A stretch of DNA of 64,000 bases from Escherichia phage PC3. A program made the translations under genes and the position numbers. The notes under the pieces are model-generated. The model saw nothing but the letters and a program-made list of their open reading frames with translations, had not been told where the DNA came from and searched no databases. Position 1 is the first letter of the stretch. Each line of letters starts with the position of its first letter. Where the stretch lies: the sequence record ON184125; one strand, written 5' to 3'. Positions 4,647 through 61,472 of this stretch are shown here, piece by piece.

Positions 4647-4670
4647 AAAAGGGGCAAACGCCCCTTTACT
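4647..4670 (+). terminator. rho-independent terminator
   Basis: AAAAGGGGC-aaac-GCCCCTTT hairpin followed by T-rich tract, directly after the stop at 4634. Confidence 0.7.
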
Positions 4671-4741
4671 TCTTCAATATCCTTCCCTATACTTCATTCC
4701 ATAAGCAGTACGACACCAACTTGAATAGCAGGAACTATATC

Positions 4742-5077
4742 ATGACACAACTCAAGAACTTCACTGCCGATGACATGTTTGCCTTCCAGGGTGCTGAGCA
4801 CTTTGCTGACGGCTCTGTACCTCGCATCTACTACTTCTCCGACGAAGAAATGGAAGATTTCTTCTCCCTGATGGAAAAGGACTACGAACCAGACGACTTC
4901 GTTTATATCATCCATCACGCTGAAGGACTGACATTGGGTTGGACGGCCAACAACGAACCAGAAGAAGTAAACTTTCCTGAAGGTATCATGTCAGAGCGCG
5001 TCGAATATCTACTGGAAGCTCTGGACCCCCACACCCTCCCGCTCTGGGCGATGTCTGTAGCCCAAGTTCAAAAATAA
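4742..5077 (+). CDS. hypothetical acidic protein
   Basis: 112 aa (MTQLKNFTADDMFAFQ...); start set at ATG with AGGAAC 8 nt upstream; track ORF 4721 starts 7 codons earlier. Confidence 0.6.
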   Translation: MTQLKNFTADDMFAFQGAEHFADGSVPRIYYFSDEEMEDFFSLMEKDYEPDDFVYIIHHAEGLTLGWTANNEPEEVNFPEGIMSERVEYLLEALDPHTLPLWAMSVAQVQK

Positions 5078-7983: not shown

Positions 7984-8014
7984 ATCCCCCTAAATACAGG
8001 GGGATTTCTTTTTC
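7984..8014 (+). terminator. rho-independent terminator
   Basis: ATCCCCC-taaataca-GGGGGAT hairpin followed by TTCTTTTT. Confidence 0.7.
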
Positions 8015-8028
8015 TGAGGAAACAAATC

Positions 8029-8526: not shown

Positions 8527-8626
8527 ACAAATATTTTGTATAGAGGGCTTGTCGACCACTGTGTATAGCTCAAAGTCGTGATGTAGACTATACTGTGACC
8601 GAAGTGTTCCAGAGGCAGAAGATCTA

Positions 8627-9685
8627 ATGAAATTTCTTGATGAACAATTCATAAATTACGTTGCTCCCAGACTCGATAAATTCAAGTGGGAGCGCGTTGG
8701 TGCTGTCGCAAACTTCCGTTGTCCCCTGTGTGGAGATTCTCTCAAAAGTGCTAATAAGCGACGCGGTTATTTTTTCTTCGATCGAGATAATGACTGCTTC
8801 CGGTTTAAATGTCACAATTGCCATAACATGAATGGCTGGTCATTTGAGTTCTGGCTGAAGAAGTTCGACGAACGCCTCTCAACAGAGTACAACATGGAGA
8901 AGTTCCGTCTGCTGGGTGATACGTCGGGCAGACCACTTCCTTCCCTGAAGCCGTTGCCAAAGCTGACACAGACCGCCCGTATTGGCTCAGTGGCGGCGAA
9001 ACGCGACGAGAGCCTCCTCGGCAATATGCTACGGCTTGATCTGCTACCGCCTGACCATAAGGCTCGACAGTACGTACAGTGGCGTGGACTGCCGGAGAGC
9101 GCTTTGTCCCTCCTGTATTACACACAGCACTTCCGCCAGGATCTACTCCAGTTCGAAACGAACCCTGAGAAGCAGCTGAAAATTCCCGATGACGAGCGCC
9201 TGGTAATCCCATTCTGGACTCAGGATGGTCGCATGAAGATCGTTCAGGGGCGTGCATTCGACAAGAATGCGACACTGCGCTACGCAACAGTCAAGCCCAA
9301 GGATGAAGACACTAAGGTGTATGGTGAAGACCGGGTGAACATTCACAAGACCAAGCTGGTTGTGGAAGGTCCGATTGACAGCCTGTTCCTACCCAACTGT
9401 CTTGCATCGGCCGACGCTGATCTACTGAGCGTGAAGGGTGACATTTATATCCCTGATAATCAGTACCGGAACCCGCAGGTGTGTGACAGTATTCAGAAGA
9501 TGATAGATAAAGGTGTCAAAGTTGTACTGTTCCCACCAGACGTTCCTTGGAAGGATATCAACGACATGGTCATGCCATCAAAGGGCAACATGTCCATACA
9601 AGACCTCCTGAAACTGATCGCCAAGAACGTTTACCAAGGTATGGCTGCATCATTACAATTCGCTGAACTGAGGAAAGTGCGATGA
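8627..9685 (+). CDS. DNA primase (T4 gp61-like)
   Basis: 352 aa; zinc-ribbon CPLCGDS...CHNCHN near N-terminus, central RLVIPFW...QGRAFDK and VEGPIDSLF segments matching my recollection of T4 gp61. Confidence 0.8.
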   Translation: MKFLDEQFINYVAPRLDKFKWERVGAVANFRCPLCGDSLKSANKRRGYFFFDRDNDCFRFKCHNCHNMNGWSFEFWLKKFDERLSTEYNMEKFRLLGDTSGRPLPSLKPLPKLTQTARIGSVAAKRDESLLGNMLRLDLLPPDHKARQYVQWRGLPESALSLLYYTQHFRQDLLQFETNPEKQLKIPDDERLVIPFWTQDGRMKIVQGRAFDKNATLRYATVKPKDEDTKVYGEDRVNIHKTKLVVEGPIDSLFLPNCLASADADLLSVKGDIYIPDNQYRNPQVCDSIQKMIDKGVKVVLFPPDVPWKDINDMVMPSKGNMSIQDLLKLIAKNVYQGMAASLQFAELRKVR

Positions 9686-9916: not shown

Positions 9917-9941
9917 AGGCCTCATTCGACGAGGCCTTTTA
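9917..9941 (+). terminator. rho-independent terminator
   Basis: AGGCCTC-attcgac-GAGGCCT followed by TTTT. Confidence 0.7.
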
Positions 9942-9951
9942 AAATACTTCA

Positions 9952-9976
9952 AAAATAATTTTTTAAAAATTATTGA
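9952..9976 (+). repeat. AT-rich palindrome
   Basis: AATAATTTT tt AAAATTATT inverted repeat between terminator and promoter-like box. Confidence 0.5.
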
Positions 9977-9990
9977 AAAAGACTTTACTC

Positions 9991-10015
9991 TTCAATAATG
10001 ATGCACTATTATAGT
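9991..10015 (+). promoter_or_regulatory. promoter-like element (TTCAATAA box + TATTAT/TATAGT -10-like)
   Basis: TTCAATAA at 9991 followed 11-13 nt later by TATTATAGT; member of recurring motif class (see findings). Confidence 0.45.
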
Positions 10016-10085
10016 TCACATAGGGCGGCAACACACCGCCGAATGAAAAGTGAAACGCACCAACTACATTATGAGGAATTACATC

Positions 10086-10574
10086 ATGGCTACTACCAAA
10101 ACTCTGATCACCAACGGCACCATCTCTTTCGAACTGAACACCGAAGTTGCTAAAGTTGAAATGTTCCGCATCGCTCAGGCAGCTGGCTTCACTGGTGGTA
10201 AAACTTCCTTCATGAACCTGCTGAACGGTAAAGTGAAATCGACAAACGGCTTCACCCTGGTAGAGCAGGTTGTGGTTGATAAAGCTGTGGTTGCTAAGAC
10301 TGCCGACAAAGTTGGTATGCTGAAAAACCTGGGTCACGACATCCACATTGTCGAAGCAAACACCGAAACTTACGGCACCATCGTAGTCGGTAAAGGTCGC
10401 ATCCAGCTGAACCCGCTGAACAACGGTTCCTTCTCTGTGATGGTCTTCCCTAAGAAAGGCTACGCAAACGAAGACATCGTGAAAGCGGCTGGTGGTGAAG
10501 CAAAAGCTCAGTACGTCAAAATGGGTAAACTGAGCGCCGACGCAGTTGAAGCTCTGGTGAGCAAACTGGCCTAA
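10086..10574 (+). CDS. hypothetical protein (162 aa) with strongly biased codon usage suggesting high expression
   Basis: MATTKTLITNGT...; near-exclusive use of CTG, GGT, AAC, GAA, ATC, CGC-type codons; own promoter-like box and terminators on both sides. Confidence 0.75.
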   Translation: MATTKTLITNGTISFELNTEVAKVEMFRIAQAAGFTGGKTSFMNLLNGKVKSTNGFTLVEQVVVDKAVVAKTADKVGMLKNLGHDIHIVEANTETYGTIVVGKGRIQLNPLNNGSFSVMVFPKKGYANEDIVKAAGGEAKAQYVKMGKLSADAVEALVSKLA

Positions 10575-11184: not shown

Positions 11185-11202
11185 TTCACTTTCACTTTCA
11201 CT
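11185..11202 (+). repeat. tandem hexamer (TTCACT)x3
   Basis: TTCACTTTCACTTTCACT directly upstream of an SD-sequestering hairpin AAATACCTC...GAGGTATTT (11205-11235). Confidence 0.6.
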
Positions 11203-11239
11203 TTAAATACCTCTGCATTCATTGTGGAGGTATTTTCTT

Positions 11240-17047: not shown

Positions 17048-17055
17048 CAAGCCAA

Positions 17056-17080
17056 AGCCCCTCAATGAGGGGCTTTACTT
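17056..17080 (+). terminator. rho-independent terminator
   Basis: AGCCCCTC-aat-GAGGGGCT followed by TTACTTTT. Confidence 0.7.
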
Positions 17081-17152
17081 TTGAAACACCCTCCACTATA
17101 CTTCCCAGTAATTCATTGGCATTCGCCACAAATTGAAAGCGGGAACTATATC

Positions 17153-17614
17153 ATGACAAACAAAGTACTCACCAACCCACTGCACAACTTCGGTTACATT
17201 CAACTCCCTCTGGTGATCGACACCCTGTACGCCGACGACAAAGAAGAGATCTGCTGGTCACCCACCGCACTGATTGAACGCGAAATCTTCAAGTCTGTTG
17301 TTGATGTCATGTTCCGTATCGGTCGCAATGGACCTCTGGTCTACCTCGGCAAGGTGACTGAGTTGAAGACAAGCCACAACGAACGCTTCCTTCGTATCGA
17401 TACAACGGGGTGCTCTCATCAGGACTTCAACACATTGCGCAATTATGTTCTGGTCAACCGCCCGGTCAGTCAACACCGCCCGTATCTGACTTCAATGCAC
17501 ATCGACAATTTCATCACCGACGTGCACCTCCGCGCCGAAACCCTCCATGAAGAGGAAACAGGCCGAGCTATCGACACAGTCTTAAATATGGTTGTGATCA
17601 CCCTGGCGGAGTAG
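17153..17614 (+). CDS. hypothetical protein
   Basis: 153 aa from ATG preceded by GGGAACTATATC (track ORF 17081 trimmed to Met 25). Confidence 0.6.
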   Translation: MTNKVLTNPLHNFGYIQLPLVIDTLYADDKEEICWSPTALIEREIFKSVVDVMFRIGRNGPLVYLGKVTELKTSHNERFLRIDTTGCSHQDFNTLRNYVLVNRPVSQHRPYLTSMHIDNFITDVHLRAETLHEEETGRAIDTVLNMVVITLAE

Positions 17615-33871: not shown

Positions 33872-35296
33872 ATGTTACTCGAATCTGTCGTGCTTTCACA
33901 GTTGATTTACAATGAAGATTACCAAAGAAAGATCCTGCCGTACCTGAAAGCCGATTATTTTGACAACGAAGGCGAAAAGGTCATCTTTGGTCTGATTGAC
34001 AGTTATACCTCAGAGTACAATGCCCGCCCGTCTGTCGAAGCACTATCTATAATTCTTGAACGGACAAAGCTGAACGAATATGTGTTTGACCAGGCGGTAT
34101 CTGCCCTGGAGAACATCAACGACAACACCTTCAATGAAGAGTGGCTGGCGAAGGAAACCGAGGCTTGGGCGCGACAAAAGGCCGTACACAACGCAATCAA
34201 GACCGCCGTTAACATCTACGGTGACGAGAAGCGCAAGGACGAGATGAACAACATCCCGACCATGTTGCAGGAAGCCCTGGCTATCCGGTTTGATTCATAT
34301 CTCGGTCACATCTATTGGGAGATGGCGGCAGAGCAGTATGACCACATGAACTCCAACGAGGCCAAGATCCCGTTCGCAGTTGAGATCTTCAATAAGGCGA
34401 CACGTGGTGGCGTTGGTAAGAAGACACTGAACATCGTAACAGGTGCGATCAACGCAGGTAAGACCACAACGCTGATTGACCTGACCGCAGGGTACTCGGA
34501 GCAGGGGCTGAACGTCTTTGTCTTCACCCTTGAAGTGGCCGAGAACGTCTGGCGACACCGTCTTGATGCCCGTATCATGCGTCGCGACTTTGAGTCTTTA
34601 GAGAAACTCACAAGGCACGAGTATATTGCAACGATAGAGAAGCTCCGCAGTCGCCAAGATGGTGCGCCCAAGGGTGATATCGTCATCAAGGAATATCCTT
34701 CCGGTACTGGACACACAGGTTTATTCCGCCGCGATATCCTTGAGTACATCCAGGCAACTGGTCGTGCTCCTGATGTTATCGTTATTGACTATCTTGGCGA
34801 AGCTGCTTCCTCGCGCCTGCCTGCCCACCTGATGCAGAACACGAACGTCTATTACACGTCTGTGGCTCGTGAGTTTCGTGCGCTGGGATTTGAGTTTGAT
34901 GTCCCTGTATGGACTGGTATGCAGTTCAATCGTGAGAATCAGAATAGCACTGATGGTGGAATCAGTGATTTGGCAGATGCTATCGGTATTCCGAAGGTGG
35001 CCGACTTCATCATGGCATTCTATGCTCCTGACGAACTGGCGGCGGTCAAGAAAGCCCGAGCCTCAATACTCAAGAACCGTTATGCCAACAAGCAGAAGCT
35101 GAAATCATTCCTGTTTGGTATGGACCAAGACAAACAGATCCTGTTTGACCTGGACTGGAATGAAGTTAAGAAGGACCTGACTGAGGCTGAGGCCAAATAT
35201 GTCGAAAACGTACACATCAAACATGACCTCAACAAGTCCGGAGCTGCTGCCAGCGATGAGCAGAAAGCCCAAACGGTCAATAATTGGAAATTCTAG
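33872..35296 (+). CDS. replicative DNA helicase (T4 gp41/DnaB-like)
   Basis: 474 aa from Met 15 of track ORF; Walker A GAINAGKTT, DnaB-like layout. Confidence 0.85.
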   Translation: MLLESVVLSQLIYNEDYQRKILPYLKADYFDNEGEKVIFGLIDSYTSEYNARPSVEALSIILERTKLNEYVFDQAVSALENINDNTFNEEWLAKETEAWARQKAVHNAIKTAVNIYGDEKRKDEMNNIPTMLQEALAIRFDSYLGHIYWEMAAEQYDHMNSNEAKIPFAVEIFNKATRGGVGKKTLNIVTGAINAGKTTTLIDLTAGYSEQGLNVFVFTLEVAENVWRHRLDARIMRRDFESLEKLTRHEYIATIEKLRSRQDGAPKGDIVIKEYPSGTGHTGLFRRDILEYIQATGRAPDVIVIDYLGEAASSRLPAHLMQNTNVYYTSVAREFRALGFEFDVPVWTGMQFNRENQNSTDGGISDLADAIGIPKVADFIMAFYAPDELAAVKKARASILKNRYANKQKLKSFLFGMDQDKQILFDLDWNEVKKDLTEAEAKYVENVHIKHDLNKSGAAASDEQKAQTVNNWKF

Positions 35297-35300
35297 GCAA

Positions 35301-35335
35301 TTCAATAAAGCGGGTCATAGGGTATAATTCTATGA
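35301..35335 (+). promoter_or_regulatory. promoter-like element TTCAAT-N16-TATAAT with TATAAT in palindrome TCATAG...CTATGA
   Basis: TTCAATAAAGCGGGTCATAGGGTATAATTCTATGA. Confidence 0.45.
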
Positions 35336-35360
35336 TCTGAATGTAAACCAGGAGCACATC

Positions 35361-35696
35361 ATGTCACACAATGATTTTATGGCTGGCCTGGTGCAGGCCG
35401 CCAAACAGGTGTGCCACACCAAACAAGCGATTGAGCTGAGTCCGGAGCAGACTCTGGAGTTCTTCAACAATCGTAAAATCTGGGAGGAATATGGAATTGG
35501 TATGATATGCCAAGAGGGTGAACTCGTACAGCTGGATCTACCGTCATTTCCCCTTCCAGTGCGCACCAACACAGTGGAATGGTATACGACGGAAGATGGT
35601 GTAGAGATCATCCCGAAGTTCCAGTATCACTCAATCGTAAACTTCTTTTTACGCCGTTGCGGGACTAATCTGATCCCACAAGGTATGAGATCTTAA
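35361..35696 (+). CDS. hypothetical protein
   Basis: 111 aa; AGGAGCACATCATG initiation region. Confidence 0.55.
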   Translation: MSHNDFMAGLVQAAKQVCHTKQAIELSPEQTLEFFNNRKIWEEYGIGMICQEGELVQLDLPSFPLPVRTNTVEWYTTEDGVEIIPKFQYHSIVNFFLRRCGTNLIPQGMRS

Positions 35697-35711
35697 CAAG
35701 AGGAACACCAA

Positions 35712-36026
35712 ATGTCTGTAGAACAAATCGGCTTTTATGTACTACCATCTGATCCTGAATCCCGTCGCAAGCTGATAGGTGCAATTGAAAACTGTCGTGC
35801 CGCCCAGGTCCGCATCAAGTCGGAACAGACTTTCATTACTGAGACTCTGGCCGAGCTGGCGAAAGACACGGGTATCAAGGCCAGCGACTTGCGCAAGGTT
35901 GTATCCGACCGCGCCAATGGAACTTACCATAAGACGATCGAAACGAGCGAGAAATATCAAGACTTATACGAGTCTCTATTCCCGAACGCCAAGCCCGATC
36001 GAGACCCGAATGTCAGTGGCGAATAA
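35712..36026 (+). CDS. hypothetical protein
   Basis: 104 aa, SD GAGGAA. Confidence 0.55.
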   Translation: MSVEQIGFYVLPSDPESRRKLIGAIENCRAAQVRIKSEQTFITETLAELAKDTGIKASDLRKVVSDRANGTYHKTIETSEKYQDLYESLFPNAKPDRDPNVSGE

Positions 36027-36044
36027 GTCAATCGAACACCAAGA

Positions 36045-36070
36045 AGCCCAGTCAAGTACTGGGCTTTTTA
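36045..36070 (+). terminator. rho-independent terminator
   Basis: AGCCCAGT-caagt-ACTGGGCT followed by TTTTTACTT. Confidence 0.7.
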
Positions 36071-36152
36071 CTTCAATAACTTTACTTTCAAGAAATAATC
36101 GCCTAATATTTAATCTGTATTGAAGAGTTACAACTACATCATGAGGCTGGAA

Positions 36153-37346
36153 ATGAACGTCAAAACATTCAATATTCCGATCGACAATGAAGGGTTGGTA
36201 GTTGAGCGACTGAAGAAGCTCGAGCGCACTGCCGAAAGGTTGGGTGTTCCGTTTCCGACTGTGACTTATGGTGAACCCTTCAAAACCCACACCCGCGACT
36301 TCACTGGTGAGATCATTACTCACTGGTGGAAACCTGTTACTCTTGAAGGCGAAGGCATTGACCGCCCCGTCTCTTATGGTGGCTGGAAGATCATCGGTCA
36401 GTTCAATCACGAATATCCAAAGGTTATTCTTAACCGCCTGTCCGACAACATCAATCCTGACTTCATCCGTCGCTTCGAGACAGAGAACGTCTCTTGGTGT
36501 CAGCATTGCAATCTAGCCATCCGTCGCAAGAACACGTATGTGATTGAAAATGAGGAAACGCATACCCAGATGCTGATTGGTAGCACCTGTATGCATCATT
36601 ATGTACCTCATCAGAAATCGCTTGACGCGATTATGTCTTACTATCTGGGGATCCAAGAGTTCTTCATGCCAGAAGAGGACGACCCAGAGGGTATATATCG
36701 CGTCCAAAATGAGCGCTTCACCGATACCCACAGTTACCTGCGCGCATGCTTCCAGGTGATGCTGGCAGGCGTGGATATCAAGTCTGAACTGTTTGACAAA
36801 GTACTGGGCTATGTCCGGTCTCACCAGAAACCAAAAGCAGGTTCCGATGAAGAGTATTTCGTAAACAAGGCACACGAATACCGTGAAGATGCCGAGTCGG
36901 AAATGTACCATATGAAGCTCTTCATCAGTGCGCTGTCCGAATCTAATGAGTTCAATGTTCGCCTGAAACGCATGTGTGAACCCGGCTATCACCTCATCAA
37001 GGATAACAACACAGTCCGCTGGGGTGCCAAGAAGTATTACGATTACATCCATCGTCCTCGTACTGACCGCAAGGCGGAGAACAAATGGGTGGGTGAAGTC
37101 GGTGAAATGCTGGAAGTGCAAGTCAGGTTCGACAAGCGCACCTTTCTCTTCTCCAATGAATATGGTGATAGTTACCTGTTTACTTTCAAAACAGCAGAAG
37201 GCAATACAATTACCTGGAAGACCTCTTATATGGATACAGAGTTCTTGCAGGGCGATATGATCATCCGTGGTCGTGTCAAAGAACTGACTGAGTACAACGG
37301 CGTTAAACAAACTCAGGTCACTAGAGCCAAATTGAGGAAATTATGA
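36153..37346 (+). CDS. hypothetical protein (about 398 aa)
   Basis: Start at ATG with GAGG 5 nt upstream (alternative ATG 36141); contains WCQHCN...STCMHH Cys/His cluster. Confidence 0.7.
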   Translation: MNVKTFNIPIDNEGLVVERLKKLERTAERLGVPFPTVTYGEPFKTHTRDFTGEIITHWWKPVTLEGEGIDRPVSYGGWKIIGQFNHEYPKVILNRLSDNINPDFIRRFETENVSWCQHCNLAIRRKNTYVIENEETHTQMLIGSTCMHHYVPHQKSLDAIMSYYLGIQEFFMPEEDDPEGIYRVQNERFTDTHSYLRACFQVMLAGVDIKSELFDKVLGYVRSHQKPKAGSDEEYFVNKAHEYREDAESEMYHMKLFISALSESNEFNVRLKRMCEPGYHLIKDNNTVRWGAKKYYDYIHRPRTDRKAENKWVGEVGEMLEVQVRFDKRTFLFSNEYGDSYLFTFKTAEGNTITWKTSYMDTEFLQGDMIIRGRVKELTEYNGVKQTQVTRAKLRKL

Positions 37347-37459
37347 ATTTGATTGAGTTTGTTCTGAAGTCGTTCGCCTTTGGTCTGATAGCATGTGGGA
37401 TGATTACAGCTATGCTTCTCATCATAGCCCTGGTCATCCCCTTTAAGAGGAAACGCTGA
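37343..37459 (+). CDS. possible small membrane peptide (38 aa)
   Basis: MNLIEFVLKSFAFGLIACGMITAMLLIIALVIPFKRKR*, ATGA overlap with upstream stop and TGATG overlap with downstream start. Confidence 0.35.
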   Translation: MNLIEFVLKSFAFGLIACGMITAMLLIIALVIPFKRKR

Positions 37460-37671
37460 TGGAATGTTCATGCGGAGGGCAGGGCACAAGTGCTTACCTG
37501 CCATTCACCACTGTGAAGGAAGCCGAAGCCGCCGGATTTGCCGTAAGCAAGGCTCCCTGTGTAATCGCCACGAAGGATTGCCCGTGCTGTAAGAGGCACT
37601 CTCAGGACGTCTTCTACGCCCCTGATGCGCGTCCGGCTACGGTCAACCTACTCTCACTGATGAGGAAGTGA
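37459..37671 (+). CDS. small Cys-rich protein
   Basis: 70 aa with CSCGG and CPCC clusters. Confidence 0.45.
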   Translation: MECSCGGQGTSAYLPFTTVKEAEAAGFAVSKAPCVIATKDCPCCKRHSQDVFYAPDARPATVNLLSLMRK

Positions 37672-37672
37672 C

Positions 37673-37894
37673 ATGCGCAAGTATTTCAATTGGCTGTTGG
37701 CAAGCCCCTGATGCGCTGAGATCCGTTGTCTAATCGATGCCATTGACGCCAAGGCTGTTTACAAAGCCCTCTCCCGACATCACAAGCGCTAGATTAATCG
37801 CACAGAGGCTCAGGCCGAAATTAAAAATCGTGAAGAAGTCCACAAGGCTCTGGGTTTCATAACAAATAATTCAATAAACTATTCACCCATATAA
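37673..37894 (+). pseudogene. possible decayed ORF: single reading frame interrupted by two in-frame stops
   Basis: Frame from ATG 37673 reads MRKYFNWLLASP-TGA-CAEIRCLIDAIDAKAVYKALSRHHKR-TAG-INRTEAQAEIKNREEVHKALGF... Confidence 0.25.
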
Positions 37895-37895
37895 T
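37870..37895 (+). promoter_or_regulatory. promoter-like element TTCAAT-N14-TATAAT
   Basis: TTCAATAAACTATTCACCCATATAAT about 28 nt upstream of ATG 37924. Confidence 0.5.
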
Positions 37896-37923
37896 ACATG
37901 GGAACTTACAGAAGGAACAGACC

Positions 37924-38265
37924 ATGACTACACTCGTAGAAACATTATTCCCAGGCTGCGTGCTTGGGCGCGGCGGATCCGAAGCCAACGGGCTACCGAT
38001 TGACGTCGAACCTCAGAACTGTGTTATTGTTGACAAGTTTCACGACAACCATTATGTCCTGAACAATCGTCGTGACCACTATCTTGTTTCCGTAGGAGAT
38101 TCTTTGGTCAGTCTGCGCATCTGCAAGGCTATGCCAGGATCCGGCTATGGAGCATTCGCCTATATTCACAGCGTGTCAAATGACGAGCTGGGTAAAGAAG
38201 CTCTGGTTGAAAAATTCAAGAGTTGGAAGGATTCTTTCACCTCAATTGAACCTCCGAAGAAATAA
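37924..38265 (+). CDS. hypothetical protein
   Basis: 113 aa, AAGGAAC SD-like sequence upstream. Confidence 0.6.
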   Translation: MTTLVETLFPGCVLGRGGSEANGLPIDVEPQNCVIVDKFHDNHYVLNNRRDHYLVSVGDSLVSLRICKAMPGSGYGAFAYIHSVSNDELGKEALVEKFKSWKDSFTSIEPPKK

Positions 38266-41847: not shown

Positions 41848-43794
41848 TTACCATTCCCACAGGATGCGGGAATTATCTGTTTTGTTCTCAGGCTCAAGAT
41901 ATGAGCTGTTGAAGTTATTGGTCGTGTTGATCCTCTTAGAAGCATCCACATTCTGCTGTACTGGCATCACGACGCTGGCCGGAGGCGGTGAATAGCCGCC
42001 TTGTACTTGCTCAATATTAGACAGCGCCCTCCCTTGTGATGGCATGGCCCCGCCCAGAGTACCACCCCCGATAGAACCATACGCAGCTTTCAGCTGAGAG
42101 GTGCGGTCATTAGTCATATTCTTGTAATCTGAAGACGCACCAGAAGGTATTGGAGTCAGCGTTTGTGGATCGATGTTCGGTTGTGCTGGCGTCTGTGGCT
42201 GCTGGGTCTCTGTCACATCAGGAGACGGATTCTCATCAGTGTCAATCAGCATAGACTGGCGAGCCTCATCCATCTTCTGCTTCGCAGCCTGTCCACCCAG
42301 AGCGTCAGGGATGATGCTGACGAACTTGTCAACGATATCGAACATCGCATTGGTGATTGTGTTCAGCATGTTGAAGAAAGGTTTCTTCACATTTTCGGCA
42401 AATCCCTTCTTGATTTCGTCAATAACCTTGTTGGCCACACCCATGCCCTCGTCGATCACACTACTGATACCCCCTGTGATCCAGTCTACCAGCTTCATCA
42501 ACTCGGACTGTAGGTTGTCTGCTAACTTGCCAGGGATATCCGTAAGAGACGTGTCTCTCCCGATCCCTGCAAACAAGTCGTTGCTAATCCAGTCGATAAT
42601 ACCATTCAGCCAACGAGCGGGAGCCTCAGTGATCATGAGGGTGTATTTGCGCAGGGTTTCACCCGCCTCGGTATCAAAGCCAAAGATCTTGGACACCCAG
42701 TCAAATAGATCACCAAATCCACCAACCAGTTCTGATATCCCCGCCCGTACTCGGTCAACTATCGTGACAGCACCTTTACCCAGGATCTCCTTCGCATCAA
42801 TGAAGCCTTTACCGAAGTCCCAGATCATAGACAGGAGAGCCAGTGGGCCGACTTTCAGGAACTTGAACACCTTCCCAAATGGGCCCAGAAGTTTGGTGAT
42901 ACCTTCTCCCAGCTTGGAGAACATGCCGAGGAAAGTCCCGACAACACCACCGATGATCTTGAACGGCTTGAGCAAGAAGCCCTTCAGTGCATTCAGGCCA
43001 AGCATGGCCGCCACCGCCGCCCCGATACCGGAGGAATCGTCTTTCTGGTCATCGTCTTTGGGTATAACAGAACCCGCCTGAGGATGACCACCCGTTTCTT
43101 TGTCGGTTTCCCCACGGCGCATCTCGTCCTTCTCACGCCACTTCTGGTCTTCATCAAAGATGCGTGTCAACACTCCAACGATATGACCGCCCGTGCGCCC
43201 AATCTTGTTTTCAATGCTATACAAGCGAGTAAGGGTGTCATCGGAGTTCTTTTTCAGTTCAGCAACATCGTCACGAACCTCGATCATCACTCCGTCGATC
43301 ATGTTCAAGAATGATCCCACGCGGACCAGAGACACACTCTGCTCGTCCATGCGCTTGAGGGTGTCATCATTGGCAGACTTCAGCTGGTCTGAGATCAGGT
43401 TAAGATACTCCAGGGACGTGTCATCTGTTGGCATGCGGGTGATCTCACCGAGGCGGTCAATCTTGCCTGCGATATTCTCCAGTTCCCGATTGCCTTCGTT
43501 ACCCACATCGACAGTATCCTTCATCCATACGCTGAAGTCGCGGGTGAAGATCGGAGACATGCGAGCGAATCCCATGACGATCTCATTGACTGTCGGGATA
43601 CGGATTTCAAATGGCTTGGACTCGGCCTTGGTGCCCTGTTTAGTGGCAGATTCCAGCTTGGCCAGATTCTTGTTCATCCGGTCAAGCTGTCTGTTGGTTT
43701 CATTCTGAGCGCGGAGTTGTTTGCGCTGCATCATCTCCGCCTTGATCTTGTCTAGAACTTTGACAACATCATTGTTCGTTGCTTCCTGTGCCAT
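41848..43794 (-). CDS. tail tape measure / baseplate hub protein (gp29-like)
   Basis: 648 aa; N-terminal coiled-coil-like region, central Gly-rich hydrophobic repeats (GIGAAVAAMLGLNALKGFLLKPFKIIGGVVG), typical of tape measure proteins. Confidence 0.7.
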   Translation of the reverse strand: MAQEATNNDVVKVLDKIKAEMMQRKQLRAQNETNRQLDRMNKNLAKLESATKQGTKAESKPFEIRIPTVNEIVMGFARMSPIFTRDFSVWMKDTVDVGNEGNRELENIAGKIDRLGEITRMPTDDTSLEYLNLISDQLKSANDDTLKRMDEQSVSLVRVGSFLNMIDGVMIEVRDDVAELKKNSDDTLTRLYSIENKIGRTGGHIVGVLTRIFDEDQKWREKDEMRRGETDKETGGHPQAGSVIPKDDDQKDDSSGIGAAVAAMLGLNALKGFLLKPFKIIGGVVGTFLGMFSKLGEGITKLLGPFGKVFKFLKVGPLALLSMIWDFGKGFIDAKEILGKGAVTIVDRVRAGISELVGGFGDLFDWVSKIFGFDTEAGETLRKYTLMITEAPARWLNGIIDWISNDLFAGIGRDTSLTDIPGKLADNLQSELMKLVDWITGGISSVIDEGMGVANKVIDEIKKGFAENVKKPFFNMLNTITNAMFDIVDKFVSIIPDALGGQAAKQKMDEARQSMLIDTDENPSPDVTETQQPQTPAQPNIDPQTLTPIPSGASSDYKNMTNDRTSQLKAAYGSIGGGTLGGAMPSQGRALSNIEQVQGGYSPPPASVVMPVQQNVDASKRINTTNNFNSSYLEPENKTDNSRILWEW

Positions 43795-46725: not shown

Positions 46726-46775
46726 GGTCTCAGCCCTTAAATAGATAGAGTGTTATGGCTATTTAGGACTAGATT

Positions 46776-54735: not shown

Positions 54736-56634
54736 TTATTCATCCTCAGTTTCAAATAGGCAAACATCGCTAAACCAGGTTTTGCGGTAATCGGCGGCCT
54801 CGTCACCGAAGCCATTCTTCAGTGACTGTTGATAGCCATCGTCCAGCGTGACCGTCGTAGTATACGCATCCAGGTTGTTTAGAATACGTTTGAAGTCTTC
54901 AGTGCTGTTACCACCCAGACCTTTCAGATATTTCTTCTTCGTGATCTTCTTGGCATCAGGCGTCTTCAGGAACTCCTCATACTCTGCGTTGTTCATGAAC
55001 TCATGCATCACCTTGCCACACCACACACGCATGTAAGGGGTGCGCAGGAGCTTCAGCCTGCCCTGACGGACGTACTCCGGCCAGTAGGTGCAATACAGGG
55101 TGATCAACAACCCACGGATGTGAATGCCGTCATCGTCCGCATCGGTAGCCACAACAGTCTGTGGGTAACGGGTGATGTCAAGGGGCTGGCCTGGTACTGC
55201 ACCGCCGTGGATCGTACACAGGTTCTTGAACTCTTCATTGTTCATCACCTTTGAGCGCGGGGCGTTCAGGCAGTTGATGAACTTACCACGAAGCGGGAAC
55301 AACCCGATCTTCTTGGTGTCGCGGGCGTTCAGGATAGGATTGGAGGCACTATCACCCTCTGTCAGCAACAGGGAGCATCCGCTGCGGTCACCACGGGCGG
55401 TCGCCGGGTAATACTTCTCAATCTCACGATAATCCCGCTTGCTGATGTCCTTCTTGGCCTTTTCAAACTCAGCATCATCCTGCTCATTGCGCAGGGAAGC
55501 CAGTTCTTTGCTCAGACCAGCCGTAACGAACTCAAGCGCCTTGCGGATCAGTTTATCGCTGGGCTTGTACGACGTACCGAACTGGCTTACAGGAGTGGTC
55601 ATGCGCTCCTTGGTCTGGCTGTCAAAGCGCGGGTTGTTGATGTCGGCGGCGATGAACAAGGACATGTGGTTCTTGATCATTGCTGGCTTCAGTTCGGTCT
55701 TGAACTTCTTCACCAGCTGGGGACGAATCGCTGCCACGATCTGGTCAGCAACATAATCAACGTGAGGACCACCGATGTGGGTGGCAATAGAGTTCACGTA
55801 TGATGCGTGCATGAACGTACCGGATGAAGGGGCTACAGCAACAGACCAATCCCCGGTTTCGTCAACAGCCGAACCAGCATGGAAGTAATCAACGAAGTGG
55901 CCAAAGCGGTCAATCCGGATTTGCTTCCCATTGAGAACAATCTTCAGGCGCGGGTTACACGCAGCCACTTCAAACGCGCGGCGATAGATCATCAGCAGGT
56001 TGTTCTGGTCAAGTCCTTTGACGCCCAGACGAGCATAGTCAGGGATCCAGGCGATGGATGTGCCGGGACTGTTCACGTTGCTGATGACTGGGTTAGATTT
56101 CTTGCTCATGTTGTCTTCAAACGTCTGAGTATAAGACTTCTTGCCGTCATTAGTCGTGACGCGGAACCATTTGGAGAACACGTTGACGAGGGACGCCCCT
56201 TCGCCATTCTGACCACCGGACTTCTGGTTGTTGTACTCTTCGTCTTCGTCGTTGAAGTTCGATCCTGCAAACAATTCTGAAAATAACATTTCTGGCAACC
56301 ACATACCAGATTCATGCTTGACCACAGGGATACCCCCGTTGTCAGCAACGATGATTTGACCGTTCATCGGGGAAACTGTGACGGTGATTTCCGTCAGGGA
56401 TTTACCCTCAGGGGTCTTGCTGTGGTCAACACAGTTGGTGATGATTTCATCAAACTGTTTGATAAGAGCGGGGTTATATTCAAAATTGTCTTTAAACACA
56501 ACTTTGTCTTTGCTGAGATCATATACCCAAGCCATCCCGACAGAAGAACGGATACTCCCTAGATGGCGCTCTGGGCGAAGGAGTATATGCTCGATGTGTG
56601 AGAGCTTTTTGTATTTTCTGTTTACATCAACCAT
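54736..56634 (-). CDS. DNA topoisomerase II large subunit (fused T4 gp39+gp60-like, GyrB-type ATPase)
   Basis: 632 aa; GHKL ATPase N-terminus, TOPRIM region, longer than T4 gp39 alone. Confidence 0.85.
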   Translation of the reverse strand: MVDVNRKYKKLSHIEHILLRPERHLGSIRSSVGMAWVYDLSKDKVVFKDNFEYNPALIKQFDEIITNCVDHSKTPEGKSLTEITVTVSPMNGQIIVADNGGIPVVKHESGMWLPEMLFSELFAGSNFNDEDEEYNNQKSGGQNGEGASLVNVFSKWFRVTTNDGKKSYTQTFEDNMSKKSNPVISNVNSPGTSIAWIPDYARLGVKGLDQNNLLMIYRRAFEVAACNPRLKIVLNGKQIRIDRFGHFVDYFHAGSAVDETGDWSVAVAPSSGTFMHASYVNSIATHIGGPHVDYVADQIVAAIRPQLVKKFKTELKPAMIKNHMSLFIAADINNPRFDSQTKERMTTPVSQFGTSYKPSDKLIRKALEFVTAGLSKELASLRNEQDDAEFEKAKKDISKRDYREIEKYYPATARGDRSGCSLLLTEGDSASNPILNARDTKKIGLFPLRGKFINCLNAPRSKVMNNEEFKNLCTIHGGAVPGQPLDITRYPQTVVATDADDDGIHIRGLLITLYCTYWPEYVRQGRLKLLRTPYMRVWCGKVMHEFMNNAEYEEFLKTPDAKKITKKKYLKGLGGNSTEDFKRILNNLDAYTTTVTLDDGYQQSLKNGFGDEAADYRKTWFSDVCLFETEDE

Positions 56635-57457: not shown

Positions 57458-58035
57458 AAGCCAAATTTGCTACGCCACTTTTCAACCTTGTGTTCAATAG
57501 CGTGCTCCACTTTAATGCGAGTGGCCATCAAAGAGGATCCACGGATCGCCCCTTCCCCACACCCCATGCGCGCAACATGCTTGATTAGGTCATTGACGAG
57601 TTGATCCAATCTGTCTTGACTGCGATAAGGCTGGTTACACAATCGGATAATCCGGCCATGATAATGATGGATAAGATTCAGATGCTTTTGAGGATCACGA
57701 TCAATCAGACGGAACCAGTCTTCTTCCAACAGATTAGAAGAAATATCGTTCACTATCGCCATGTGGTTGATGACAGAGTCGATCATTTCGGCCTTGTTCA
57801 TAGAGCCGCGCATTTGGACGTCGTCATAATCCATGACGTACAGAAGGTCAATAGCAGAGATAATGACATCAGCAACTTCGCCATTCAACGGCTCGGAAGA
57901 TACTATGCCATGAAACACATCAGACAGTTCACAGATCTCTTCACCTAGTTTGTTCAGAACAAACACAGGCGAACGGTCTGGGGTATGAGCAGTGCAGTCA
58001 TAAGAAGTGTCGACGATAGTGTGTAGAAATTTCAT
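57454..58035 (-). CDS. MazG-like nucleotide pyrophosphohydrolase (tentative)
   Basis: 193 aa; LGEEICELSDVF ... EVADVIISAIDL resembles the EExxE...D pattern of all-alpha NTP pyrophosphatases. Confidence 0.4.
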   Translation of the reverse strand: MKFLHTIVDTSYDCTAHTPDRSPVFVLNKLGEEICELSDVFHGIVSSEPLNGEVADVIISAIDLLYVMDYDDVQMRGSMNKAEMIDSVINHMAIVNDISSNLLEEDWFRLIDRDPQKHLNLIHHYHGRIIRLCNQPYRSQDRLDQLVNDLIKHVARMGCGEGAIRGSSLMATRIKVEHAIEHKVEKWRSKFGL

Positions 58036-58520
58036 TTCAAAGTTCCTTGTATGCGGAGACGATTAATGTGGGCAATGATATAGTCCATAGAGTTTTGAAA
58101 ACTGTATTTCCCGTTCTGAACATATGCATGGATCAGGGGTAGGCGACTGTACGCCAATCTGATTTTCAGACGTTCAGGCATTGTCTGGAGTTTCATACTA
58201 GTTGCAAATAGGATATCGCGCTTGAATTCTTCGGTGGACGGGTCCAGGACAATGACGCGAGAAGCCGCCAATCCCTGTCCATATTGCTTGGCCTCATAAC
58301 CGTCGAGCAGGCGCAGGTTGTCATCCCTATACTTCAGCCAATACCAGTACCCCTCCATGGAGTTGAACACACCATGTTCATGGGTAGTCATTGGATGATG
58401 GGTAAAATGCGAGAGGAAGCGCCCGAGTTCCGTCTGGCTCCGGCTATAGATGTTGAAGTGATTCTTACCCTCTGTTGCAGGGGTCATCTTGTTCTGTGGA
58501 ACGTTCATTAACAGCATCAT
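58032..58520 (-). CDS. hypothetical protein
   Basis: About 162 aa; start region ACTACATCATGATGCTGTTAATGAACGT parallels the start of 36153. Confidence 0.5.
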   Translation of the reverse strand: MMLLMNVPQNKMTPATEGKNHFNIYSRSQTELGRFLSHFTHHPMTTHEHGVFNSMEGYWYWLKYRDDNLRLLDGYEAKQYGQGLAASRVIVLDPSTEEFKRDILFATSMKLQTMPERLKIRLAYSRLPLIHAYVQNGKYSFQNSMDYIIAHINRLRIQGTLK

Positions 58521-58562
58521 GATGTAGTTTCTCAAATCAAAGTATTGCTGTGTGTAGTGAAA

Positions 58563-59306: not shown

Positions 59307-59371
59307 TTGGTGTATCCTCAGTTAGGTTCCGCTCATGGGGAACGGGTCCATTATACACCAAATGCTGGAAA

Positions 59372-59396
59372 TGAAAAAGAGGCCGGAGCCTCTTTT
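59372..59396 (-). terminator. rho-independent terminator (minus strand)
   Basis: AGAGGC-cgga-GCCTCT hairpin flanked by A-run and T-run; nearly identical hairpin at 61456. Confidence 0.65.
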
Positions 59397-61264: not shown

Positions 61265-61449
61265 GTTTGGTTCTCCTATAGACTGTTACGTATTTACCAC
61301 AGCAATTGCAGCAGTATACGTGCATCGCGTATCCTTCGTCTGTGAAGTCGCAACCACCACAGCGACAGAACAATTTCACGAACTGTTGGTCATGAACTTC
61401 ACGGGGAGGAAAGTTCTTGTGGGAGTATTCCCTGGTCTCGCCTTCGAAC

Positions 61450-61472
61450 TGAAAAGGAGGCCGGAGCCTCCT
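61450..61472 (-). terminator. rho-independent terminator (minus strand)
   Basis: GGAGGC-cgga-GCCTCC hairpin with A-run on plus (T-run on minus) downstream of gene ending at 61489. Confidence 0.65.

Follow-up and report, generated by a model that had tools for sequence, protein, structure and literature searches.

A TAYATC-ATG start-codon motif at genes 121 and 152 of Escherichia phage PC3 and its probable PeSL-like cassettes

Introduction

Two distant genes of Escherichia phage PC3, gene 121 on the plus strand and gene 152 on the minus strand, carry the same 12-mer in their start regions, which raises the question of whether it marks a copied leader segment, a regulatory site or a chance match. 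Both genes lie in a stretch of 64,000 nucleotides from this phage (sequence record ON184125), here called the window. A sequence-only reading of it had proposed a duplicated translation-start module giving both proteins M-x-L-x-M-N-V N-termini, perhaps a mobile or recombination-prone leader, perhaps a conserved regulatory site. The strings it relied on are present: window positions 36133-36161 read ACTACATCATGAGGCTGGAAATGAACGTC on the plus strand, the minus strand from 58528 reads ACTACATCATGATGCTGTTAATGAACGTT, and a third variant at 10062-10088, AACTACATTATGAGGAATTACATCATG, ends on the ATG of the gene at 10086 (gene 83). The repeated 12-mer is not a private duplication of two genes; it is the core of a consensus that these phages reuse. 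We consider it likely that this core, AC-TAYATC-ATG-A, belongs to a translation-initiation consensus which closes cassettes resembling the PeSLs (promoter-early stem-loops) of T4-type phages, and that the additional match between genes 121 and 152 is coincidental.

Gene numbers and starts follow the annotation of Escherichia phage PH4 (ON184126.1; Ackermannviridae, Aglimvirinae, ViI-like), whose 155.9-kb genome has 191 annotated starts and in whose record the window occupies positions 64001-128000. A 3-kb query taken from window 35000-38000 matched PH4 record 99000-102000 at 100% identity. The sole mismatch over the 64 kb is a T at window position 56266, where ON184126.1 has C; it falls within gene 149, a minus-strand gene for a GHKL ATPase / topoisomerase II subunit.

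Results

A recurrent motif on start codons

TAYATCATG is found five times in the window against 1.15 copies expected. Four of the copies sit on annotated starts (genes 76, 83, 92 and 152) and the fifth lies 12 nt upstream of the start of gene 121. Over both strands of the PH4 genome there are 19 copies, 14 of them exactly on annotated starts, and control 9-mers of the same composition occur 0-7 times. The trinucleotide ATC precedes 28 of the 191 annotated PH4 starts, and half of that number (14/191) are preceded by TATATC or TACATC. When all 4096 hexamers before ATG in PH4 are ranked, TATATC comes first (10 observed vs 1.25 expected, an 8-fold excess, z = 7.8) and TACATC second (9 vs 1.49, 6-fold, z = 6.1).

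The same preference is seen in another subfamily. TACATC is the top-ranked hexamer before ATG in Kuttervirus phage 38, whose heavily fragmented annotation led us to bypass the annotation for this genome, and TAYATCATG has 17 copies there, including those at the orthologs of genes 54, 83, 92, 152, 182 and 183 and in the gene 121 leader. AC-TAYATC-ATG is kept at orthologous sites in three Ackermannviridae lineages, and the variation found on searching related phages falls mostly at the two degenerate Y positions; the idea of a conserved regulatory site is borne out in this respect, for the core only. T4 was tried as a further carrier and discarded, given that TATATC-ATG occurs three times and TACATC-ATG twice in 100 kb, with no enrichment.

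The motif is reused at about 15 non-paralogous genes. Paralogy was rejected as the cause of the recurrence, since the proteins of the motif genes gave no non-self BLASTP matches, and the proteins of genes 121 and 152, when compared directly, are unrelated (BLASTP E = 2.6). For these two, a Pfam search came back empty and PHROGs matches were limited to families of unknown function.

The start codons of genes 121 and 152

Relatives of both proteins were collected by scanning IMG/VR, which gave 4 loci for gene 121 and 11 for gene 152, a sample adequate for alignments and thin. Gene 121 has two candidate start codons, and it begins at the second (36153), because relatives put the first out of frame: in loci L010 and L011 and in phage LIMEstone1 a 1-nt insertion separates the two ATGs, and TAAATC replaces TACATC in the same three leaders. 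The ATG at 36153 is the only one conserved in frame across all gene 121 relatives, it is the annotated start in the PH4, LIMEstone1 and phage 38 records, and position 1 of the PHROG 2319 profile aligns to the methionine of its MNV. The first ATG has TTGAA at -21 but TTACAAC in the slot where the Shine-Dalgarno sequence (SD) would stand, which identifies it as an SD-less copy of the module within the 5' untranslated region (UTR). The SD that serves the true start overlaps the module's ATG in the string ATGAGG, and ACTACATCATGAG of this leader is kept in phage 38.

Gene 152 behaves in the opposite manner. Its first ATG (58520, the annotated start) is invariant in 12 of 12 aligned sequences, PH4 and 11 relatives, and the second (58508) is lost in relatives, reading ATC or CTC in five of them at 67% protein identity, so that gene 152 starts at 58520. 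Directly before this ATG, PH4 and the 10 relatives that have at least 67% protein identity carry CTAYATC, with changes confined to Y, and the eleventh, the distant L022 (38% protein identity), lacks it. The Asn codon downstream is AGC or AGT in close relatives, and 'ATGAACGT' in gene 152 is ordinary coding sequence. The motif ATG therefore serves as the start codon in gene 152, whereas in gene 121 it lies within the 5' UTR and belongs to the Shine-Dalgarno region there, and neither the shared M-x-L-x-M-N-V N-termini nor a duplicated module giving the same N-terminus can be upheld.

Two further observations concern gene 152. The leader segment at 58541-58562 on the minus strand, CTACACACAGCAATAC...TTGATTTGAG, is almost invariant in PH4 and 10 closer relatives, among which the end of the gene upstream of it is completely diverged, and ACACACAGC from this leader recurs upstream of gene 32, another motif carrier. 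The gene itself (58032-58520) encodes 162 aa that align to positions 107-273 of the 296 in PHROG 652, a family usually about 100 residues longer on the N-terminal side, and may be a shortened or split member of it.

Copies overlapping the SD of other genes

Gene 83 repeats the layout of gene 121. Of the two tandem cores in its leader, the upstream one has an ATG that overlaps the SD GAGG at 10073-10076 (ACATTATGAGG). The string CCAACTACATWATGAGGA is kept in Taipeivirus, and the leader (10062-10088) is identical in phage 38. In Klebsiella phage May the upstream ATG is out of frame, lying 13 nt and not 15 from the start, with ATGAGG kept; the 5' part of the gene 83 cassette is nearly invariant as far as this phage.

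Gene 83 (10086-10574) encodes 162 aa of unknown function (phrog_3764). Together with its whole promoter and leader it shows 93-98% DNA identity in Kuttervirus and Limestonevirus genomes, far above the genome-wide DNA homology of 59-69% between family members (PMC3296691). Judged by eye, its codons resemble those used in very highly expressed genes. The clamp-loader gene 42 (PH4 record 43153-43168, outside the window, AAACTATATCATGGAAATACATAATG) has a core 13 nt upstream of its start and out of frame, the same placement over the SD region as in genes 121 and 83; it is a homolog of T4 gp44, which is a classical RegA target in T4.

A composite element and its promoter class

The core forms the 3' end of a composite of about 27 nt, TTGAA - N3-5 - SD - AC - TAYATC - ATG. 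TTGAR within -34..-14 is found at 11 of 15 motif genes vs 17 of 176 others (p = 8.8e-8), mostly at -20/-21, in a tally that includes gene 121 measured from its first ATG. Genes 15, 28, 55 and 76 and the ATG at 36141 in the gene 121 leader have TTGAA at -21 in common.

The element also keeps company with one class of promoter (Table 1). A first regular expression requiring TTCAATAA returned six sites and was too narrow; TTTAC-N17-19-TAnnnT, searched in upstream gaps only, was used in the end. Six of the nine genes behind such sites have TAYATC at their start, vs 8 of 182 others (p = 3.6e-6), and gene 121, with TAYATC 12 nt upstream of its start, is a seventh. The motif is missing from all 16 genes with late-type TAAATA promoters. 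The hairpins listed in Table 1 for genes 121, 83, 76 and 92 lie directly 5' of the -35 or overlap it, and at position 58380 of phage 38 the -35 is flanked by stem arms. PH4 holds nine promoter-type and about 15 start-module copies, and the open reading frames (ORFs) downstream encode mostly small hypothetical proteins.

At gene 121 the hairpin, for which the scanner gives a 9-pair stem at 36044-36066, is conserved in relatives, and in their alignments the TTTAC and the -10 region of the putative promoter are invariant. This promoter scores 8/12 against TTGACA/TATAAT, where the generic scanner cutoff is 9/12. In the LIMEstone1 record the orthologs of the gene 121 and gene 83 sites are each labelled with a 'putative middle promoter' and a terminator, labels that rest on similarity to T4 consensus sequences (PMC3296691). 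No promoter was found near gene 152; the nearest promoter-like site on its strand is at 59377-59350, upstream of gene 154.

Table 1. Positions in the window of the motif copies, promoters and hairpins at motif-bearing genes
Feature	Position	Strand	Details
Gene 76 cassette	4648..4744	+	predicted hairpin 4648-4667; putative promoter 4665-4693, TTTACT-17-TATACT; TTGAA 4721-4725
Gene 76 core TATATCATG	4736-4744	+	start 4742
Gene 83 cassette, 5' part	9917..10012	+	hairpin 9917-9937 (fold); AT-rich stretch; putative promoter TTTACT-N17-TATTAT 9984-10012 (scanner)
Gene 83 leader, two tandem cores	10062..10088	+	AAC-TACATT-ATG 10062-10073; T-TACATC-ATG 10079-10088 on start 10086
Gene 92 cassette	17054..17155	+	predicted hairpin 17054-17076; putative promoter 17074-17102, TTTACT-17-TATACT; TTGAA 17133-17137
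Gene 92 core TATATCATG	17147-17155	+	start 17153
Gene 121 terminator-type hairpin AAGCCCAGT-loop-ACTGGGCTT and T-run	36041..36069	+	RNA fold; closes the preceding unit and begins the gene 121 cassette
Gene 121 putative T4-early-type promoter TTTACT-N17-TAATAT	36081..36109	+	regular expression; -10 matches 5/6
Gene 121 leader, SD-less full-length module copy	36120..36143	+	TTGAA at -21, AC-TACATC-ATG; ATG 36141-36143 is not the gene start
Gene 121 SD and true start	36143..36155	+	GAGG 36143-36146; ATG 36153-36155; 6-nt spacer
Gene 152 composite start module	58518..58540	-	TTGAT/TTGAG 58540-58531 (GAG = weak SD); AAC-TACATC 58529-58521; ATG 58520-58518
Gene 152 codons 2-6 segment	58503..58517	-	ATG CTG TTA ATG AAC, then GTT; resembles the gene 121 SD-to-start stretch

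Start regions with the motif are slightly more accessible than others (0.55 vs 0.49 unpaired, p = 0.04). No stable RNA structure was found over the motif, and the whole window gave no Rfam covariance-model match at gathering score. Several simple origins of the sequence were rejected by inspection. A second promoter composed of TTGAA and TAYATC would have a spacing of about 9 nt, and its transcript would miss the start codon; extended pairing with the 3' end of 16S rRNA (mRNA complement UAAGGAGGUGAUC) does not fit, and neither does extended codon-anticodon pairing with the initiator tRNA, which predicts U at -1.

Cassettes outlast the genes behind them

Comparison of PH4 with phage 38, which belongs to a different subfamily, shows how conservation is distributed around the ATG. 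Identity is 94% in the core (-8..+3), 88% at -25..-9, 82% in the leader (-75..-26) and 60% over the first 30 nt of coding sequence. From one subfamily to the other, conservation is stronger in the cassettes than in the genes behind them.

In three of eight orthologous PH4/phage 38 cassettes, gene content changes right at the ATG. Gene 55 of PH4 is inserted between the module and the homolog of gene 56; gene 182 is replaced in phage 38 by an unrelated ORF of 185 aa, with 93% upstream identity that stops at ATG+9; and phage 38 has about 230 nt extra, with an extra ORF, between the module and its gene 92 homolog, the cassette being kept. Homology at the level of subfamilies stops at ATG+4 to +9. 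Within PH4, genes 15 (outside the window) and 76 encode unrelated proteins and have a promoter and leader of about 85 nt in common, and the gene 76 slot of phage 38 is occupied by a gene 15-like gene behind a gene 15-type leader. The notion of a mobile or recombination-prone leader is thus apt for the family, where three of the eight comparisons show gene replacement or insertion from the ATG, and fails for the pair on which it was based: the leaders of genes 121 and 152 share only the consensus, and gene 152 is without a promoter cassette.

This organization recalls the PeSLs, mobile regulatory cassettes described in T4-type phages (Straboviridae) by Arbiol et al. 2010 (PMC2839356) and Comeau et al. 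2014 (PMC4122927). In these repeats a stem-loop is combined with an AT-rich stretch and an early promoter, and the 3' end is formed by the SD and ATG of the gene that follows. The promoter consensus of T4/PST PeSLs is TTTACW-N17-TAYWAT, crossovers fall between the -10 and the ATG, and PeSLs flank ORFans (PMC4122927, PMC2839356). Placement in hyperplastic regions and recombination between copies, with mini-circles and the excision or insertion of ORFs, are further traits of the class; in our phages the junctions at the ATG and the leader common to genes 15 and 76 would be indirect signs of such recombination. The cassettes studied here likewise combine a stem-loop or terminator, an AT-rich stretch, a sigma70-like promoter and, at the 3' end, SD and start; the T4/PST consensus fits their predicted promoters (TTTACT-N16/17-TATAAT, TATACT, TATTAT); and they flank lineage-specific small ORFs, with exchange junctions between the -10 and the ATG. 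They differ in that their 3' part has its own sharply conserved TTGAA...AC-TAYATC-ATG, and in that this element is also found where there is no promoter (gene 152) and, lacking an SD, within the leaders of genes 121 and 83. No description of PeSL cassettes, of the start motif or of a transcriptome for Ackermannviridae was found in the literature searched.

Two near-identical terminator-type hairpins on the minus strand, at 61442-61470 and 59364-59392 (GAGGCTCCGGCCTC plus T-run, 24/29 identical), rank third among the repeated 29-mer pairs of the window and may represent the stem-loops of cassettes on that strand.

What the element may do

On the explanation that we favour, the consensus would in Ackermannviridae mark the gene that immediately follows a T4-early-type promoter, as well as a few genes inside operons. 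The cassette of terminator hairpin, TTTACT-N17-TAnnnT and a leader of 30-70 nt would be a portable expression unit of the PeSL kind, and the element at its end a cis-acting, G-poor, weakly structured ribosome-loading region that allows efficient initiation on early mRNAs. Its conservation may also supply microhomology where cassettes swap downstream ORFs, with new early genes plugged in at a fixed junction consisting of the ATG plus 2-3 codons.

A possible parallel is the ribosome-binding site of T7 gene 10 (pET), GAAGGAGATATACATATG, which has a strong SD and a G-free ATACAT-type spacer directly before the ATG. Its site GGAGATATACATATG resembles the SD-ATG spacer of our element, and PH4 has T7-like examples at gene 169 (AAGGATATACATCATG) and gene 32 (GGAGATACATCATG). 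The register, however, is off by one base (ATACAT-ATG vs TACATC-ATG), and the upstream enhancer of T7 is TTAACTTTA, not TTGAA. We would take the likeness as a lead on mechanism and not as homology.

Several points weigh against this explanation. Promoter activity, the timing class (LIMEstone1 has 'putative middle promoters') and the translational effect are all things we infer. A lack of structure leaves the selection of two specific hexamers and of a TTGAA at fixed distance unexplained, and the difference in accessibility is marginal. A trans-acting factor would account more easily than ribosome loading alone for the conservation of the SD-less copy at gene 121. Since gene 152 and a few other carriers lie away from promoters, the start element does not belong strictly to the cassette. 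The full-genome comparison outside the subfamily comprises phage 38 only, and that genome is poorly assembled. Finally, the extra match of 14/17 between genes 121 and 152, discussed below, is statistically unusual, with about 0.1 such pairs expected among 18,145 by our own binomial estimate.

A trans-acting factor is at the heart of the strongest alternative, in which the composite is the RNA operator of a phage translational repressor, most plausibly the RegA homolog encoded by PH4 gene 44. Once infection has advanced, this protein would silence the set of early mRNAs by occupying their spacer and AUG or, in genes 121 and 83, the SD; the SD-less copies over the real SD of these two genes would be dedicated repressor sites, and about 15 early mRNAs would form a post-transcriptional regulon with a sharp consensus (UUGAA - SD slot - AC-UAYAUC-AUG). 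This would account for the sequence specificity, for the restriction to non-late genes and for the conserved SD-less copies. Clear RegA homologs are present in PH4 and phage 38, at 43-45% identity to the T4 protein (E = 9e-27 and 5e-28, the PH4 homolog being the one at 43% and 9e-27), and three of five key residues, T18, R21 and W81 of the RNA groove, are conserved in the PH4 protein. T4 RegA sites overlap the AUG or sit just 5' of it, RB69 RegA protects the SD-AUG spacer, and both are unstructured (PMC3014915). The motif has the same position, with its core at -8..+3 and the extra copies over the SD in genes 121 and 83, so that here too there would be unstructured single-stranded sites over the AUG or the SD-AUG spacer of many early or middle mRNAs in a phage that has a homolog.

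We nevertheless regard a RegA operator as unlikely. In T4 and RB69 the operators are rich in A+U, contain poly(A) or UAA repeats and show no sharp consensus (PMC3014915). The motif is weakly structured, but it is a defined sequence without a poly(A)/UAA pattern, it carries conserved C residues at -7 and -1 and often at -4, and it is not enriched in T4. The PH4 protein has G in place of K14 and H in place of F106. Most PH4 carriers are small genes without an assigned function, unlike the replication genes of the T4 RegA regulon, and the start of the regA gene itself is without the motif.

Another early-gene signal of T4 was considered and set aside. The RegB/S1 cleavage site GG*AGRAYARAA (Durand et al. 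2006, cited in PMC3014915) is likewise a consensus specific to early genes, and it extends from the SD over the spacer behind it. Its sequence does not match, most copies of our element having GGAA or AGGA and not GGAG, and the spacer pattern differs; a tblastn search with T4 RegB gave no homolog in PH4 and phage 38 (E > 2).

Extra similarity between genes 121 and 152

Beyond the core, the two start regions agree at 14 of 17 positions in +4..+20, the best of 18,145 start-region pairs (mean 4.8, standard deviation 1.9), and among the 29-mer pairs of the window that are seeded by a shared 12-mer theirs is the top one (26/29). A recent copying event, in which gene conversion or duplication moved about 29 nt from one start region to the other, would produce such figures, and cassette copies elsewhere in these genomes do exchange sequence. 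Several features make it improbable all the same. The match is broken at three internal positions. Upstream identity is 11/20, which is nothing beyond the consensus. The gene 152 side is vertically inherited coding sequence, with M-[F/M]-L-L-[I/M/L]-N-V-P across the family. By our own sequence comparison the match falls in the two nearest relatives, to 13/17 in the L008/L012 phage and 12/17 in the L009/L015 phage, and is lost in L010/L014, LIMEstone1 and phage 38, a stepwise decay indicating that the likeness grew via separate point substitutions; the gene 121 changes concerned are CTCAAA to CTGGAA, GAC to AAC and GCC to GTC. We read the extra downstream match as a coincidence of the PH4 lineage that probably has no conserved function.

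Two in-frame starts in both genes, giving long and short isoforms (MxLxMNV... and MNV...), are very improbable: both ATGs are in frame in the two PH4 genes and in gene 121 of phage 38, but no SD is suitably spaced from the first ATG of gene 121 (GAAGAG ends 13 nt before it), which L010, L011 and LIMEstone1 moreover have in another frame, and the second ATG of gene 152, likewise lacking an SD, is replaced by a different codon in five relatives. Pure coincidence between two unrelated start regions that happen to share a 12-mer is hardly credible, for even though an exact repeated 12-mer is ordinary by itself (559 identical pairs in the window, 223-289 in shuffles), the enrichment of the two top-ranked hexamers, the 14 start codons and the conservation across subfamilies refute it for the core, and we prefer it only for the additional bases that follow the ATG.

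Other start codons and late promoters

Start contexts elsewhere bear on the annotation. Gene 119 is annotated from 35379, and an in-frame ATG at 35361 has a much better context (CAGGAGCACATC-ATG) and gives an ORF of 111 aa; the start was probably mis-called. For gene 183 (PH4 record 143898-143952, outside the window) a TTG start is annotated, but the same frame contains, 54 nt further on, TATATCATG together with a good SD; the phage 38 ortholog begins at the motif start (13233), and the true start is probably at record position 143952. Gene 97, a gp26-like baseplate hub gene on the minus strand annotated from 21200, has GGAGA-TACATT-ATG at 21350, 50 codons upstream and in frame (ORF 20544-21464), and may be longer than annotated. 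The ORF at 8627-9685 (352 aa) extends the DNA primase gene by 67 codons upstream of its annotated start at 8828; the extension coincides exactly with gene 80 on the opposite strand (8624-8824), which may be spurious, the primase start being mis-called.

Some 15-20 nt behind late-type promoters (CTAAATACCCC or TAAATACCTC) lies their complement (GGGGTATTT or GAGGTATTT), which includes the SD. Such sites are found at 11200-11239 (gene 86) and 7989-8028 (gene 79) and, outside the window, at genes 1, 2, 33, 38 and 185. Pairing of promoter and complement means that a hairpin could hide the SD in read-through transcripts and not in those from the late promoter. The arrangement looks systematic here, and the same one is known for T4 genes e, soc, 49 and I-TevI. 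In the 50-nt gap at 46726-46775, between the divergent genes 133 (minus strand) and 134 (plus strand), two back-to-back TAAATAG boxes form an inverted repeat (CTTAAATAGATAGAGTGTTATGGCTATTTAGG), and the gap looks like a shared bidirectional late promoter region.

Discussion

For the annotation of Ackermannviridae the motif is a reliable start-codon marker, and it supports the start of gene 152 and singles out genes 119, 183 and perhaps 97 as having starts that were probably mis-called; the case of gene 121 cautions that an upstream in-frame ATG in a perfect start context need not be a start. If its sequence specificity reflects a trans-acting factor such as RegA, the motif would offer a well-defined system for studying translational repression, and a RegA operator, were that to prove true, would be the first clearly defined recognition sequence for the RegA family, which T4 and RB69 never gave; as of the 2010 review, no structure of a RegA-RNA complex had been solved either (PMC3014915). 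On the explanation that we consider likely, the cassettes extend the portable units of the PeSL type from T4-type phages to the ViI-like family, many members of which are studied for phage therapy and biocontrol.

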